From Candidatus Poribacteria bacterium (GTDB lineage Bacteria > Poribacteria > WGA-4E > WGA-3G), in NCBI GenBank assembly GCA_963665235.2, contig CAXXLX010000001.1:736001-800000 (forward strand): 64,000 nucleotides of DNA, in the 5' to 3' direction. Both the position numbers and the translations under genes were made by a program. The notes beneath the pieces were generated by a model. The model did not search any database and was not told the DNA's origin. It saw only the letters and a program-made list of their open reading frames with translations. Shown here one piece after another: positions 18,271 to 50,720 of this stretch; position 1 is the stretch's first letter; each line of letters starts with the position of its first letter.

Positions 18271-19758
18271 ATGAAACCATTAATAGTTGTGAATATGAAC
18301 GCGCTGAGAGAGGTCTATGCGGCGGAGGCGTTGGATATTCAAAAAGCGATTGAAGCCTTCGCGCAGGCACATGACGCGAACGTGCTCGACATCGACGCGG
18401 CATACCGAGCGAAGACTGGACACCCTATTTCAGTACCAGCGTATCCTAATACTGCCCTAACAACCATAGCAAAGGAAATCAAAGCTGAAATACGCTCACA
18501 CATGGGGAATCAATTGGATACGCTCATATTGGTTGGAGATGAGACTGCTATTCCGATGTGGGAAGTCTATCTGGATGAAACGCCTATTCACACCGATTCC
18601 TTCTATGCGGATTTGGATGGCGATGGTTTGCCAGAAGTTGTCACGACACGAGTCCTCGGGAATGCCGATGCAATACAGCGACAATTGTGTGAAACCGCTC
18701 CAATTGGGGGGCCGGTGTCCACAATTCTGTGTTCGGAGGATACCCGCATACATTTGGAAACGCAGCGGTTTCTCGACGCGCTTACACAACAGGGACATGA
18801 GGTAGGAGTGCTCGGTAGAGGGGGTGAGCAATGCCTGCCGCAGTCAGATTTGATAATTCATTTCGGGCATGGAAGTCCGAAAAGTCTGAGTAATAGATTT
18901 GGGGAAACCTTTGTGTCAGCGGAAGGTATGCCAACATTGTCGCGTCATCCCATTGCGATTGTCGATGGGTGCGCCACCACGCCGCCCGGTTCAGCATTAC
19001 TCCGCGCATTTTTGAACAACGGTTGCCGTGCTTATCTCGGCAGCACTGCAACTGTGGCAGGAATGATTCCGGCACGTTACACCAATCAAATAGTGATGCA
19101 TTTTCTGGACGCTTACGAAGCGCATCCGTCGTGGCCCGTGGCGAAACTCCTCACTGCAGCACGCACCAAATACGCTACAGTCAATCGTCTTGCCGAGGCG
19201 TTATTGGAACTTGAACAGGTAGGGTCTATCCCTCAGCTCGAGCGGGGGACAAACACACACCTGCTGACGTTTCTTGAATGGCATGCTTACGGGTCACCTT
19301 ATGCCCGTTTACATCAAGGGGAGGCGCAGCGAGTTTTTAATCGGCACCCTTTGGTCCAATCTCCAGTATCCCCGCAAACAGCGGAACAAAATGGGGTTGA
19401 GGTGACCTTCGAGTTAAAAAGCACAGATGGTAAACCGATTCTTTTCCTTCGGGCAGATTGGTTGAATTCGGTTTCAGCTTGGCTCATCGTTAAGGTTCAA
19501 CAAAATGGACAGGTTTTACACCAGTTGCATGGAGCTACGAACATTATCTATCAGCATTTGGAAGACATTTGTGTCGGCGGTTATGTGGATGGAGATATGT
19601 ATCACGCTTATTGGTTATTGCCGCTGCAGCGAGAGGTAGGGCAAAACCGCCTGCGCGTCGAATTCTCTAACGGCAGAAACGGCAGAGTGGTAGTTTTACC
19701 CGAATCTGCCGTAAACATCTGGCCTGAATGGGAGACGATTTCTGCTCCCGAGGCATAG
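18271..19758 (+). CDS. Peptidase C25 (gingipain-like) domain protein without an obvious signal peptide
   Basis: LILVGD..IP, DSFYADLDGDGLPE, HFGHGS (His), VDGCAT (Cys), AYLGST; RBS GGAG before ATG 18271. Confidence 0.75.
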   Translation: MKPLIVVNMNALREVYAAEALDIQKAIEAFAQAHDANVLDIDAAYRAKTGHPISVPAYPNTALTTIAKEIKAEIRSHMGNQLDTLILVGDETAIPMWEVYLDETPIHTDSFYADLDGDGLPEVVTTRVLGNADAIQRQLCETAPIGGPVSTILCSEDTRIHLETQRFLDALTQQGHEVGVLGRGGEQCLPQSDLIIHFGHGSPKSLSNRFGETFVSAEGMPTLSRHPIAIVDGCATTPPGSALLRAFLNNGCRAYLGSTATVAGMIPARYTNQIVMHFLDAYEAHPSWPVAKLLTAARTKYATVNRLAEALLELEQVGSIPQLERGTNTHLLTFLEWHAYGSPYARLHQGEAQRVFNRHPLVQSPVSPQTAEQNGVEVTFELKSTDGKPILFLRADWLNSVSAWLIVKVQQNGQVLHQLHGATNIIYQHLEDICVGGYVDGDMYHAYWLLPLQREVGQNRLRVEFSNGRNGRVVVLPESAVNIWPEWETISAPEA

Positions 19759-19766
19759 TTTTTACA

Positions 19767-19918
19767 ACGTGCGCTTGATAATAAATATCCGTTTGCTCTA
19801 AACCTTTTTCATCGCGAAAAAAGCGGTATAATTGTAGCATAAACTTCCTAGTTTGTGCTGTTTTTTGCTAAAACTACCAGAGAACGCTGTAGGTCAAAAC
19901 TTTTTTTCAAACTCGCGT
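19767..19918 (+). mobile_element. MITE-F carrying one REP hairpin
   Basis: Ends ACGTGCGCTTGA...TCAAACTCGCGT, flanks TTTTTACA/TTTTTGCA, internal GTAGCATAAACTTCCTAGTTTGTGC; related single ends near 33263 and 46030. Confidence 0.7.
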
Positions 19919-19999
19919 TTTTTGCACCAAAATGGCAGTCGGCAAGAGGGGGTGATTGATTTTTTAGACACCCCTCTTAACCGATAGCCGATAGCCGTA

Positions 20000-46516: not shown

Positions 46517-48538
46517 CTAATCTGTGCTTTCAGCTGCGGGGGTAAAATCAAGTTGCGGGTTGTCTTCGAGCTTCTTGCTCGGTAAACTCAGTATTGCCTC
46601 AATGATAAGTGCTAGCATCATCGCGATGAGAAAGGTGCGCCAGAGTTCATTCGCCAAGGCAGATGTATCTCCGACCTCCACATCTATTCGCCGATAGGAC
46701 AATCCATCAAACAAGCTATCCACTGTGTCAACGGGTGCCGCCTTAGCCGTATCTTCAGCATCGCTGCGATTGATAGCTACCCAGTCCGTTTCGTTTTGGT
46801 AAACCCCTGCATGTAATCCGCGTTCTGAAAGAGAGGGGGTATCTTCTACAGGCGCGACCGCTTCCCACTGTTCACGGTCTGCTAGCGCATCAGGTGCCGC
46901 GTCGCGTTGAGATGCGGATGCTAATGCCCGACACCCTATAGCTAACGCCCGTTGTAGCATAACATAAAACACAACACCGTCGCGTTGTAGTGAAGAGAAC
47001 TCTGCTGTAGGGAGTGTGCTACAGAAATAGGCCGCACCGGGCTCCGTTGCCACACGGATTAGGAGCGGTGCCTCGTTTCCAAACTTTGCTAACGTTGTGC
47101 CGGTACTTTCAAGGGCGCGATATCGGTAGGTGCGGAGTTCATTTAAGGGTAAGGCATCGCCGCTGGCTACATGTGCAAACAGCTCGGTGTCGCCACGCCA
47201 CCATGCAAGCTTATGAAACTGCTGTTCATCCGGTGATTGCCAGTCATTCCAACGTGAGTCGAAGATTTGCCCACCGGGGTTTTGATTCGGTGGAAAGAAG
47301 ATAACAACCCGTCCGCTGTTGACGAAATTCTGAAGCTGTTCTGCGAGCAGACCGCTAGGCAAAGCTGCCTGCCAGATTAACAATCCCGTCCTTTCCCAAT
47401 CAATTTCCCCAATACGATTTACGGAAATCACCTCTGCTTGATGTTGCAGCCGAGCATCGGGGGGGATAGCAAGAGCGAGCCGAAACGCTTCACTAATTCT
47501 CGCGTCATCACTGACGATAACCGATTTCCGCATCGGTGGTTCAGAGAACACAAAGAAAAATCGGTTATCCAACGGATTGGCATCCCCGGGCAACCGAACT
47601 GCCCCCCAGCCTGAAGTAAGCTTACCATCAATTGGGATACGATGTCCTTGCAAAGATGCCCCCCGTGTATCAAGTTCAACTTCAACCACAGACCGGACGT
47701 TGTTGACTTCAAATTCAATCGGCACCTTTCGTGTGTCGCTCCTGTTGCCTTCGGTGCGAACTATCACGTCAAGAATGAGTTCCGCCTCGTTGCCGCGTTG
47801 CCACCGTTGCACGTTTTCGACCCGTACGGATAAATTGTTTGTGGCTGGGGCTGAATAGGAAAGCAGGAAATGGTGGACTCCCTCCAATTTTCCAAATTCT
47901 TCGCGTATCGCCTCCCAGCGTCCGCTATCAACACTCCAATCGTTCTCGTGAAGGTCGGAGCAGAGCCATACATCGGCACGTCCTGAGTTGTTCGCCTTCA
48001 GATAAGTTAATGCCGATTCAAGCATACCCGGGATGTTAGCCGTCGTGACAGTAGCATCGGTCATCGGCAGGCTTAATAGGGCTTTAGGTGAATCTACTTC
48101 CTGTAGCTGTCCGGTGGCACTATCGATGAGAATCAGGTGTGTTCCGTAATCTCCCTGTTCCAGCAATTGTGCGAGTCTTTTCAGTGCCGTGGAACGTTTC
48201 GATTCCCCCGCTTGTAGGTCCTGTATCTCCATACTTGCAGAGCGATCGAGGAGGACCATAGTGACATCAGGTTTCGCCAATCCGATGCTTCCCAGCCATC
48301 CGCCGGAGAGCGGGCGGCTGATAGCAAATATTAACGCTGCGATAGCGAGAGTACGCATGAGGAGGATGAGAATATGACGAATCCGCGCCATGCCTTTACT
48401 CATGCGTTTCGCAGTCATCAGGAACATCATCGCTGCCCAGGGGACAGTCCGATGCCGCTGCTGATTGATAAGATGGATGATGACTGGCAACAGCATCAAT
48501 GGAAGTGCAATTAATGCAAGCGGTTGTAGGAAATTCAT
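46517..48538 (-). CDS. BatA-domain + vWA protein
   Basis: MNFLQP...PVIIHLIN...VPWAAMMFL (BatA), LLDRSASM (MIDAS-like), C-terminal TM. Confidence 0.9.
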   Translation of the reverse strand: MNFLQPLALIALPLMLLPVIIHLINQQRHRTVPWAAMMFLMTAKRMSKGMARIRHILILLMRTLAIAALIFAISRPLSGGWLGSIGLAKPDVTMVLLDRSASMEIQDLQAGESKRSTALKRLAQLLEQGDYGTHLILIDSATGQLQEVDSPKALLSLPMTDATVTTANIPGMLESALTYLKANNSGRADVWLCSDLHENDWSVDSGRWEAIREEFGKLEGVHHFLLSYSAPATNNLSVRVENVQRWQRGNEAELILDVIVRTEGNRSDTRKVPIEFEVNNVRSVVEVELDTRGASLQGHRIPIDGKLTSGWGAVRLPGDANPLDNRFFFVFSEPPMRKSVIVSDDARISEAFRLALAIPPDARLQHQAEVISVNRIGEIDWERTGLLIWQAALPSGLLAEQLQNFVNSGRVVIFFPPNQNPGGQIFDSRWNDWQSPDEQQFHKLAWWRGDTELFAHVASGDALPLNELRTYRYRALESTGTTLAKFGNEAPLLIRVATEPGAAYFCSTLPTAEFSSLQRDGVVFYVMLQRALAIGCRALASASQRDAAPDALADREQWEAVAPVEDTPSLSERGLHAGVYQNETDWVAINRSDAEDTAKAAPVDTVDSLFDGLSYRRIDVEVGDTSALANELWRTFLIAMMLALIIEAILSLPSKKLEDNPQLDFTPAAESTD

Positions 48539-48568
48539 CAAAATCTTCGGATTGGAAACCCCCAGCAT

Positions 48569-49597
48569 TTATGCGGGGGAGGAAAATCCGCCTTTATAGT
48601 TGAAGTTCAAGCGTGTTAGCACTTGAAAATCTGTGCGTTTCGCACCCGTTGTTAATCGGTGTCCATCTAAACTATAGACAGAGAATAGGCCTTTAGCATT
48701 AACACCCGCAAGGCGTGTGAGTCCATATTTTTCGTGCTTTATCAATGTGTTTTTAACAAGTCCATCGCCTAATAAGGTGCCACCATATCGCGGACGATTG
48801 CCACCTTTCTGCGGATTTTGTCTGTGGAGTTGTCGCCTGCGTATCGGTATCGGTGAGATACAGAATATATCGGTATTGTCGGGTATCTCTAAACCGCCAA
48901 CGGTGTGATAGGCCAAGCACCAACTATCAACGCAATGTGCCTCAAAGGTTTCAGCTAACTTCTTTGACGACTTGTTGAGACCAAGCCGCTCGCGTATCTC
49001 TTTGGTTTCAAACCCTTGTAATGTTAGGAGTCTCCATCGCTTTTCTACCTCTGAATAGAACCAATGCTTGCCGACTTCCAAAGGACTAAAGGACTGATTC
49101 CACTGCTTTTGATACTGTTTTGTTTGCGCCTTAATGTCCTCAACACAGACGTGTGTGACAGGATAGAGGTTAGACAACCAATCTAATATCCGAAGTTTCC
49201 AATCCCATCTCGCACGTGTGCCTGCAGGGATACGCTTCCGGTTCGACAGGTTGTGCTGCTTCTTTTTTCGATTCGGGCATTTCCGTGTGCGTCTGCTTCT
49301 CCGCAACTTCCGACGCTTCTCGATTTTCTTTCCAACCTTGTTGTGAGCGTCTGCTTGCACATTTAGGTAGGTATGTGCCTCGCTTTTGACGGTAAAGCCT
49401 TCCTTCTTACTGCCAGGGTCTACGCCTACGCATATCTGTTGGAAGTATCTATCCGAAGGCTCGGCGTTAAGGCGCACACAAAAAACGCCATTCTTCCAAA
49501 ACGGTGTGGCTTTCTTGTCTCGTATCCACTTCCTTGCCCGCGAAGGCTTTGTCGGCATCAGTGGATTTTGGTTTTTGTCAACAACAGGAACAAACAT
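48569..49597 (-). CDS. isrB: IsrB RNA-guided nickase (PLMP/RRXRR + split RuvC, no HNH), 342 aa
   Basis: MFVPVVDKNQNPLMPT (PLMP), RuvC-I GVDPGSK, Arg-rich bridge helix RRKLRRSRR, RuvC-II VED, RuvC-III HCVDS; no HNH or CxxC insert; RBS GGAG before ATG 49597. Confidence 0.9.
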   Translation of the reverse strand: MFVPVVDKNQNPLMPTKPSRARKWIRDKKATPFWKNGVFCVRLNAEPSDRYFQQICVGVDPGSKKEGFTVKSEAHTYLNVQADAHNKVGKKIEKRRKLRRSRRTRKCPNRKKKQHNLSNRKRIPAGTRARWDWKLRILDWLSNLYPVTHVCVEDIKAQTKQYQKQWNQSFSPLEVGKHWFYSEVEKRWRLLTLQGFETKEIRERLGLNKSSKKLAETFEAHCVDSWCLAYHTVGGLEIPDNTDIFCISPIPIRRRQLHRQNPQKGGNRPRYGGTLLGDGLVKNTLIKHEKYGLTRLAGVNAKGLFSVYSLDGHRLTTGAKRTDFQVLTRLNFNYKGGFSSPA

Positions 49598-49604
49598 AGT
49601 TTGT

Positions 49605-49802
49605 AATTCTCCGTAGAGTTTGTATTTCCCCATCCAGATCGGTATATCAGCGTTTACATCGGACTTGGGGAGCATCCGAAACACCTTTGTGCACCACCAC
49701 AGATATACCGATATATTACTGTAGTGAAGAACTTAATCTTTGACAGGGAACGTGTGGTTACGCTATGTCAAAGCACCCAGGCTTTAGCAGGGTGATCTTT
49801 AC
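49605..49802 (-). ncRNA. Putative omegaRNA scaffold; guide predicted from the flank at about 49803-49822
   Basis: About 200-nt non-coding structured region directly upstream of isrB, with pairings TTTGACA/TGTCAAAG, ATCGGTATATC/GATATACCGAT and TCGGA-TGCTCCCCAAG-TCCGA whose loop can pair with the downstream TGGGGA. Confidence 0.75.
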
Positions 49803-49814
49803 TGATGGCCTGCC

Positions 49815-50720
49815 TCACTTACGCTTTTTTGGGGTTCGGCCCAGTAAGAATTTTGCCAATACATCCCCGTAGTCCTCATTTATACAGATACGGTGATAGT
49901 CTATTTCGGTGTCGCGGCTGACCTCGTCCATGCTTTCGAGATATACCTCAAGGGCGCGGCGGTATTGTGTGCCGATGATAATTGGGTCTGCCAGCAAGGG
50001 TTCACCACCTTCCATATCGACAAACCGCATCGGTCGGTCGAATTCAAAATCCAGTTCGTTCTGTTCGATGAGATGAAACACCGCCACGTCATGTTTTCGG
50101 AATCGGAGGTGTTCGAAACAGTTGCGCGCCACTTCCGGTTCAATAAAAAGGTCTGAAAGGATGACAATCAGTGCGCGTTGCGGGATGCGTTCGGCAGCTT
50201 CGTGTAACGTGTCCGCCAGTCCTGTCTCGCCTGTCGGTTCAGCGGCACCGAGTTCATCAAGAACTGTGCTGAGATGGGTTGCACTCCGCTTTGGCGGAAT
50301 CTCTTTGTGAAATCTGTCTCCCGCGCAATAGAGCCCAACAGCATCGCCTTGAAGTGCAGCGATATAGGCGAGGGTGCCGCCGATGCGTCGTGCGTAATCG
50401 AGTTTACTCATACCGTTGTAAGCGAAACCCATCGACCCGCTGGTATCGACAATTAGGCACATACGTAGGTTTGTGTCGGCTTCAAACTCCTTGATATAAT
50501 AGCGGTCGTTCCGGGCATAAGCACGCCAATCGAGTCGTCGGGTATCATCGCCTGGGACGTACTTTCGGTATTCAGCGAATTCTAGGCTGGAACCGCGAAT
50601 CGGGCTGCGGTGTTTGCCGGACACATTACCTATCATCGGCAACCGGGCATGCAATTGCAGCGTTGAAAGCCGCTCCAACACCCCCTGGTCGAGATAATCC
50701 CGTTTGAGTTGCAGTGCCAT
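49815..50720 (-). CDS. DUF58 domain protein
   Basis: G.HRS...G.SLEFAEYRKYVPGDD.RRLDW, VDTSGSM, ILSD. Confidence 0.93.
   Translation of the reverse strand: MALQLKRDYLDQGVLERLSTLQLHARLPMIGNVSGKHRSPIRGSSLEFAEYRKYVPGDDTRRLDWRAYARNDRYYIKEFEADTNLRMCLIVDTSGSMGFAYNGMSKLDYARRIGGTLAYIAALQGDAVGLYCAGDRFHKEIPPKRSATHLSTVLDELGAAEPTGETGLADTLHEAAERIPQRALIVILSDLFIEPEVARNCFEHLRFRKHDVAVFHLIEQNELDFEFDRPMRFVDMEGGEPLLADPIIIGTQYRRALEVYLESMDEVSRDTEIDYHRICINEDYGDVLAKFLLGRTPKKRK

Follow-up and report, generated by a model that had tools for sequence, protein, structure and literature searches.

The central finding of our analysis is that a compact mobile element interrupts the moxR-DUF58-batA operon of a Candidatus Poribacteria bacterium, in the same orientation as the genes of that operon. 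The element lies in a 64,000-nucleotide (nt) stretch of contig CAXXLX010000001.1 (positions 736,001 to 800,000; assembly GCA_963665235.2), hereafter the window, and all coordinates are positions in this window unless a genome or contig label is given. It occupies 48539..49802 (1,264 bp) on the minus strand, as do both adjoining genes and the putative guide flank. In all likelihood it is an intact, non-autonomous member of the IS200/IS605 superfamily, of the ISC1 type, which carries a HEARO-like omegaRNA together with the nuclease gene isrB and acts by the mechanism set out step by step below. A preliminary description made from the letters of the window had assigned the locus to 48534..49822, an interval that contains the element but adds the guide and the target-adjacent motif (TAM) to the element proper.

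The limits of the element were established by aligning its copies within the source genome (G000), by an element-free allele in the public run X6, and by an occupied and empty pair of sites in the relatives G013 and G023. At the 5′ end, homology among own-genome copies begins at 49802/49803 (GTAAAG...) and the preceding bases differ among copies, so that the boundary had been correctly placed in the preliminary description. Among the six closest copies (95-97% identical), homology runs from GTAAAG (49802), or from 1-2 bases earlier if the flank base coincides. At the 3′ end the junction reads ...CCGAAGATTTTG|ATGAATTTC, with the batA ATG at 48538-48536, and all 17 intact copies examined terminate in ...TTGATGA. 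ATGA follows 41 of the 42 genomic 3′ ends that reach the end of our nhmmer end-profile, and AGGA follows the remaining one. Among Poribacteria ends ATGA comes after 66 of 79 and ATGG after two, the other 11 being out-of-register or partial matches, unchecked individually.

Because TTGATGA is invariant in the 17 intact copies, conservation alone cannot place the boundary, and the whole motif might in principle be transposon sequence that furnishes batA with a new start codon. The empty sites refute this reading, to which we give next to no chance. DUF58 and batA are adjacent without the element in 19 relatives, and in the ten of these whose junctions could be read by script batA begins ATGAATTT in every case, preceded by CG, TT, CT or AT. 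In contigs from run X6, about 95% identical, 48538 is joined to 49810 without the element; the last 7 bases of the spacer are replaced by 10 or 40 other letters, and the ATG, preceded by T or A, is kept. In another genus, the occupied site in G013 has the junctions ...GGAG|GTCAATAA... and ...GAGGAG|ATGAATC at its two ends, and its empty counterpart in G023, which retains ATGA, reads ...TTTATGGAG|ATGATTC; a 4-nt ambiguity of this junction is settled by the fixed GTCAA start. Moreover, if the flanks of other copies were joined with the ATG left out, known genes would lack a start codon. These comparisons indicate that the element is inserted directly 5′ of ATGA, without target duplication, and that ATGA belongs to the flank, as had been proposed. 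The ATG was likewise correctly identified as the start of batA, since residues 2-77 of the protein match positions 2-77 of the 77-position BatA profile of Pfam and the ten readable relatives agree. The empty allele that had been predicted, GGCAGGCCATCA joined to ATGAATTTC, was not found in that exact form; element-free alleles are provided by the X6 contigs. The occupied allele is represented in two other studies (runs X1 and X5) by flank contigs that extend 25-29 nt into both element ends with 0 mismatches. As a separate observation, the DUF58-batA gap of one relative (G017 C21:1824900-1826680, L075) spans 1,539 nt and holds other sequence, apparently a gene, and not an IsrB element.

By its sequence, the protein of the element is IsrB, a predicted nickase with a RuvC domain and no HNH domain. 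The reading frame 48569..49684 (371 amino acids, aa) matches a single Pfam family, RRXRR (PF14239, E 5.4e-33, residues 32-193), and the same search returned no HNH family at E<=0.01. The likely, conserved start of isrB is the ATG at 49597 (MFVPVVDKNQNPLMP), so that the gene occupies 48569..49597 on the minus strand and encodes 342 aa plus stop. NPLMPT, VGVDPG and RRKLRRSRRTRK represent the PLMP motif, the RuvC-I aspartate and the arginine-rich bridge helix, respectively. The residues D60 in VGVDPG, E153 in VCVEDIK, and H221 and D224 in EAHCVDSW are invariant in nine of nine family members, which bears out the earlier assignment of three RuvC acidic motifs. The best match in the PDB is DtIsrB of Desulfovirgula thermocuniculi (8DMB, chain 8dmb_P), with E 1.8e-37 from the single sequence and E 7.9e-44 from a profile of the nine-member family. 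This chain aligns over profile positions 3-318, whereas HNH-bearing IscB chains align only up to positions 113-159. D60, E153, H221 and D224 fall on the RuvC residues of DtIsrB, with E153 (VCVEDIK) and H221/D224 (HCVDS) opposite its TEDV and HANDA.

The TAM-interacting domain of IsrB could be aligned in part. The profile alignment reaches DGKRIGQ of 8DMB and leaves the last ~25 residues unaligned, and a phmmer search with the C-terminal 103 aa gave an alignment that stopped short of the TAM-reading residues. R314 aligns with the arginine of DGKRIGQ, which we take as R323 of DtIsrB, a numbering inferred via a 150-residue tag offset. In the part of Hirano 2022 (PMC9581776) consulted, R323 of DtIsrB reads the G of the TAM and Q326 its fourth base. 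The same source gives the DtIsrB TAM as NTGA, as the preliminary description had stated for a characterised IsrB, and ATGA was also cut.

Upstream of isrB lies a 200-nt omegaRNA scaffold (49603..49802, minus strand), which is the reverse complement of the transposon right end (RE) and was delimited in an alignment of 13 scaffolds from the source genome and six relatives. RNAalifold predicted 38 pairs from this alignment, 17 of them with compensatory changes. A second structure, which we built ourselves on the HEARO consensus, comprises P1, a first hairpin, a long-range helix, three inner helices and a loop-to-3′ pseudoknot. In this structure 91.8% of cells pair, against 78.8 +/- 1.0% in shuffles (0 of 500 reached the observed value) and 30-45% with slid partners, and 20 of its 48 pairs vary on both sides. 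Plain RNAalifold missed P1, hairpin B and the terminal hairpin, as MAFFT sets the 3′ strands out of register between subfamilies. Hairpin B (CUUUGAC/GUCAAAG vs CUUGUG/CACAAG) and the terminal hairpin (CUC-UACG-GAG vs CCC-GAAA-GGG) show covariation by eye only and were excluded from the pair count. Together with a scaffold that begins exactly at the copy boundary, this covariation upholds the omegaRNA-like region described before.

The first stem of the omegaRNA doubles as the RE subterminal hairpin (49774..49794, minus strand) and has the form CACCCUGC-UAAA-GCCUGGGUG with a mismatch at 49780 private to the window copy. The last scaffold hairpin contains a GGAG upstream of the isrB ATG, and the scaffold ends in UUAC, 5 nt before that ATG. 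Likeness to HEARO (RF02033) is evident in the position of the RNA and in the motifs GUCAA..CCCCC-GCUAAAGC-GGGGG, GAUGCUCCCCAAGUC and the terminal UUAC. Weak HEARO matches (21.8-31.1 bits) occur in seven of ten paralog loci, and those in L009 and L013, the two checked by coordinate, start on the isrB strand right at the copy's 5′ boundary. Judged from these features, the RNA works like HEARO and shares its motifs, and it is no member of the family by Rfam's criterion. Several copies in the source genome (C1:3020110-3021521, L008/L021; C1:3598792, L015; C1:2522249 and 3814966, L022 and L025) carry insertions of 40-90 nt that lie within the last hairpin of the omegaRNA, immediately ahead of the isrB ATG, and these insertions hold small hairpin-like repeats of their own (..AAAACAAATGACC..GGTCATCCGTTTT..).

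Since the scaffold starts at the transposon end, the guide must derive from the flank on the DUF58 side. This agrees with the claim of a guide from the 5′ flank and with the rule stated for IscB in the portion of Meers 2023 (10.1101/2023.03.14.532601) drawn on here: an RE-derived scaffold, a guide outside the RE boundary and a need for read-in transcription. The DUF58/VWA gene (49815..50720, minus strand; Pfam DUF58 E 1.6e-44), which follows a moxR-type AAA_3 ATPase gene (assigned by Pfam) in the same operon, is co-oriented with the element and would be the source of that transcription. Its stop codon is the TGA at 49817-49815, and not, as described earlier, a TAA inside GTAAG; a 12-nt spacer (GGCAGGCCATCA, minus strand) follows, and the element was inserted in this gap before the batA start codon. 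The putative guide flank (49803..49822, minus strand; GTAAGTGAGGCAGGCCATCA) overlaps this stop and lies directly 5′ of the scaffold start. Downstream of the element, the batA-like gene (46517..48538, minus strand) encodes 673 aa counted from the ATG of the TAM.

The ends of the element suggest how it may be mobilised. At the left end (LE), an imperfect subterminal hairpin (48559..48579; CCCCCAGCA-TTTA-TGCGGGGG) lies on the plus strand, opposite isrB and presumably the top strand for TnpA, and spans the isrB stop codon. It folds as DNA with -11.8 kcal/mol (z -2.43) and is conserved among the 3′ ends found by nhmmer. Between this hairpin and the cleavage point, the LE tail (48539..48558, minus strand; TTTCCAATCCGAAGATTTTG) resembles that of IS605 elements with TnpA and TnpB. 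The RE hairpin is conserved across copies and is weak in the window copy (DNA fold z 0.01) because of the private C at 49780, so that of the terminal hairpins claimed earlier the LE one stands as described and the RE one is present in weakened form. The ATGA at 48535..48538 (minus strand), of which the ATG is the batA start codon, would serve both as the TnpA target and as the IsrB TAM. On the plus strand, which is taken as the TnpA top strand, it reads TCAT, and the insertion lies 3′ of this TCAT.

No tnpA is present in the element or in the 64-kb window, as noted before, but for the genome as a whole the statement does not hold: 13 Y1_Tnp matches were found, 12 of them over the Pfam cut-off, and two types of TnpA are candidate mobilisers of the element. 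We examined four IS605-type elements of the source genome (loci L031-L033). Those at C1:31454-33300, C1:3153000-3154827 and C2:338524-340340 code for a TnpA of 134-137 aa and a TnpB of 368 aa, and in the fourth, in the C2:434881 region, only TnpB was found. All four terminate in ...CCCCC.GCTTTAGCTGGGGGTCTATCAC, and when the 5′ end of the IsrB element is reverse-complemented it is closely similar to these termini: the GCTTTAGC loop is shared, and the tail measures 8 nt. The left ends of the four, in turn, resemble the 3′ end of the IsrB element, and the bases that come next are ATAA(A), or TTTAT on the opposite strand; some 25 similar ends stand alone elsewhere in the genome. From this layout of ends it follows that isrB lies on the strand opposite to the one that codes for TnpA and TnpB in the resident IS605 elements, with the omegaRNA starting at the RE, in agreement with Meers 2023 and Kapitonov 2016.

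Shorter relatives of the element were also encountered. Elements of 450-490 bp that lack a reading frame lie on C1 of the source genome at 19462-19942, 337433-337905, 504553-505006, 681345-680873 (minus strand) and 1888563-1888070 (minus strand) (L039-L044). They open with a HEARO-like omegaRNA start (GTCAATAA.. or GTAAAGAT..) and close with the same 3′ hairpin, tail and ATGA, and about 170 nt of common non-coding sequence replaces isrB; weak HEARO matches were obtained in four of the six mini-element loci fetched. Judging by this architecture, they could be guide-only passengers that use IsrB made elsewhere.

How might such an element maintain itself? The steps proposed here are inferred from Meers 2023, Hirano 2022 and Kapitonov 2016. 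Neither the junctions nor the stretch between the DUF58 gene and the omegaRNA showed a promoter-like or terminator-like site, so that read-through from the operon would make a guide-plus-scaffold RNA, the 5′ part of which would be the last 16-20 nt of the flank (...GTGAGGCAGGCCATCA; this guide length is an assumption), joined to the scaffold. IsrB would then bind this RNA. A Y1 TnpA made elsewhere in the genome might excise the element, and excision would restore the guide match next to the ATGA junction; the restored junction would be recognised by IsrB and nicked on the non-target strand, and repair from a sister copy would reinstate the element. As a 20-mer, the guide occurs nowhere else in the genome, and the occupied allele has GTAAAG directly after it. 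As the match is thus followed by GTAA and not by NTGA, only the excised and rejoined site would be a target, and the occupied site would be safe. Start-codon sites are most likely harmless and transcribed in the right direction, and copies that land there would therefore persist.

Several points weigh against this reading of an intact, working element. On our analysis homing by IsrB would be an extrapolation from IscB and TnpB, the enzymes for which repair-based site restoration has been shown, because IsrB only nicks. The RNA data consist only of contigs of related copies, in which neither ends nor strand are visible. The contigs of RNA library X7, in which the omegaRNA 5′ part of related copies has a higher word depth than the reading-frame part, are not counted as evidence. 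In the covariance-model search that the preliminary description had suggested, a scan of the whole window gave no Rfam match to the window copy at the gathering threshold, and for 48400-50000 even E<=10 returned only a chance long non-coding RNA match and no HEARO; the scores of the paralogs, too, are far under the gathering score of 83. The position aligned to Q326 of DtIsrB is a threonine, T317, at the very end of the local match and with inferred numbering. Finally, the window copy has six private substitutions, one of which (49780) breaks a pair in the first omegaRNA stem and RE hairpin, and it may be less mobile or active than its sister copies.

The last point could be carried further, to a window copy that is a decaying, immobile relic: an open isrB frame with a lesion in the RE and omegaRNA which, with age, no longer moves or guards its site. 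Consistent with age, this copy differs from its six nearest copies at 38-70 positions, three of those six being only 1-5 apart; the private C at 49780 breaks the pair of alignment columns 14/23, and the RE hairpin folds no better than shuffled sequence. Nevertheless, that column pair is unpaired in eight of 13 family members anyway, the remaining helices are intact, the 342-aa reading frame is open with all catalytic residues present, and the occupied allele recurs with 0 mismatches in the two other studies mentioned above. We therefore consider a relic quite improbable and continue to favour an intact element. As for the family, the source genome holds 47 BLAST matches to the element, the 342-aa frame is intact in seven of seven near copies, and the 1-5 nt that separate three of these speak for recent transposition.

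Placed beside known systems, the element adds nothing new in kind, since ISC1/IsrB transposons are already known to have N|ATGA as target, guides taken from the flank and a TAM of the NTGA type. In the part of Kapitonov 2016 (PMC4810608) at hand, ISC1 elements have 5′-GT termini, N|ATGA targets without duplication, and ends in common with IS605B elements that carry TnpB in antisense. ISC1 elements such as ISC1-1_MA of Microcystis aeruginosa are, like the present one, non-autonomous, code only for an HNH-less Cas9 homolog, start with 5′-GT, and share subterminal hairpins with IS605-type elements. They end in ...CG, as opposed to ...TTG here, and the host of ISC1-1_MA belongs to a different phylum, the nearest relatives of the present element being in metagenome-assembled genomes (MAGs) of Poribacteria. 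With DtIsrB the element shares the PLMP motif, the RuvC D/E/D residues, the lack of HNH and an upstream omegaRNA; the DtIsrB omegaRNA measures 284 nt against about 200 nt for the scaffold here.

Another close system is the IscB of ISGst5 from Geobacillus stearothermophilus, which, in the sections of Meers 2023 used here, likewise has an RE-derived scaffold, an outside guide and TnpA supplied in trans, and of which the TAM, TTCAT, is the reverse complement of ATGAA. ISGst5 coexists with TnpB elements of TAM TTTAT, and the IS605 ends of the present genome are followed by ATAA(A); its nuclease has an HNH domain and makes double-strand breaks, unlike the RuvC-only enzyme here. The value of the locus is thus that of a clean, well-bounded natural example in Poribacteria genomes of the sponge-symbiont type. 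The same genome combines many diverged copies, omegaRNA mini-elements without a reading frame, and a co-resident IS605 family with TnpA, TnpB and TTTAT-type ends, and so mirrors the Geobacillus network.

That an ATGA target biases insertion to gene starts had also been proposed in the preliminary description, and the bias is real in the counts. In the source genome, the ATG of the TAM opens a reading frame of at least 100 codons at 26 of 41 ATGA ends, compared with 6,927 of 39,677 ATGA sites genome-wide (17.5%; binomial p 8e-11), with the proviso that copies are non-independent and the background comes from the source genome only. When empty sites were rebuilt by script, the ATG was the first ATG of such a frame in 13 of 29, against a background of 5.0%. 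A stricter null, confined to non-disruptive sites (1,516 ATGA gene starts vs 5,774 intergenic ATGA sites on a crude gene map), expects 20.8%, and the excess persists for both counts (p 4e-9 for 26/41; p 0.003 for 13/29). Among eight relatives, 13 of 20 sites open at least 149 codons, including GTGA sites where GTG begins the frame; a 66-nt query for the 3′ end had given 10 matches in three of five relatives, too few, and the ends were taken by coordinates instead. A wider survey took the best 80 loci of a contig collection, all from Poribacteria MAGs, and of the 68 ends that could be scored there, 30 open a frame of at least 100 codons. In OZ244616.1, the genome with the most loci (19, many of them 72-74% identical to the query), six of 19 ends open a long frame. 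The frames include recognisable genes: in LeuC-like, ArgJ, 5-FTHF cyclo-ligase and BatA proteins, a Pfam domain starts no more than 15 residues from the ATG that the TAM provides. The 5′ flanks of copies often finish in GGAG-type motifs a few bases before the element.

These figures might be taken to mean that the start codon is actively targeted, with the element or its TnpA preferring (A/G)TGA at translation starts, perhaps through single-stranded or ribosome-exposed DNA at such starts or through the guide system of IsrB. The excess over both nulls in the source genome, the gene starts among relatives, GTG-opened frames included, and the Pfam domains near the TAM all point in that direction. 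We nonetheless consider active targeting unlikely. The share of six of 19 in OZ244616.1 is near the 17.5% background, a figure measured in another genome, and the overall share in Poribacteria MAGs is only 30 of 68. Requiring co-orientation with transcription as well would raise the expected share to about a third, as estimated from the counts of the non-disruptive null; in addition, copies are non-independent and the gene map is crude. Because of the low share in OZ244616.1, retention probably drives most of the bias, that is, the excess at gene starts probably reflects mainly the survival of copies at transcribed, harmless sites.

Individual sites illustrate the pattern. An IsrB element stands directly before the argJ start codon in two genera, at G000 C2:342214 (L012) and G012 C1:1835840-1836380 (L121), where the N-termini of argJ read MKQIDGGITAV.. 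and MKEIDGGITAV..; either the insertion is old and shared by both, or the site was used more than once. At G000 C2:361853 and C1:3543565, element ends directly precede reading frames with the N-termini MKVALIFGGRSPEHEVS and MNQSVTRAAGVVSLAVMGSRVLG. The first looks like a D-Ala-D-Ala ligase (ddl-like) and the second like MurJ, and if these names are right, probably essential genes tolerate insertion. At the window copy itself, the isrB stop codon TAA is immediately followed by an ATG located 10 codons upstream of the batA ATG and sharing its frame (MLGVSNPKIL; 48568-48536, minus strand). On the sequence, termination and reinitiation might here yield an N-terminally extended BatA, coupled to isrB translation. 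Subfamilies with other tails do not preserve this arrangement, and for that reason we treat it as incidental.

The literature searched contained no relevant statement on a start-codon bias. The HEARO paper of Weinberg from 2009 reportedly mentions ATGA or GTGA beside HEARO elements, in which case the start-codon point may be less new. In the part of Kapitonov 2016 (PMC4810608) at hand, supplementary figures aside, start codons receive 0 mentions.

From one third to two thirds of the copies lie precisely at a start codon, with GTG starts counted too, a point that merits a brief look by specialists. It raises the question of how host genes, some of them probably essential, are translated when their ribosome-binding site is displaced by 1.26 kb. 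Tentatively, and with a good deal of doubt, we suggest that the (A/G)TGA target and TAM may act as a start-codon address, by which the element lands between the ribosome-binding site and the start codon in sense orientation. If this were true, the element would gain both a site where it does no harm and transcription of its guide by read-in, and the host gene would be translated from the element's own 3′ tail; the genes affected would be leuC-like and argJ and, by their N-termini, ddl-like and murJ-like ones. ISC1 elements would then be systematic rewirers of translation initiation, with a TAM shaped by the grammar of host genes.

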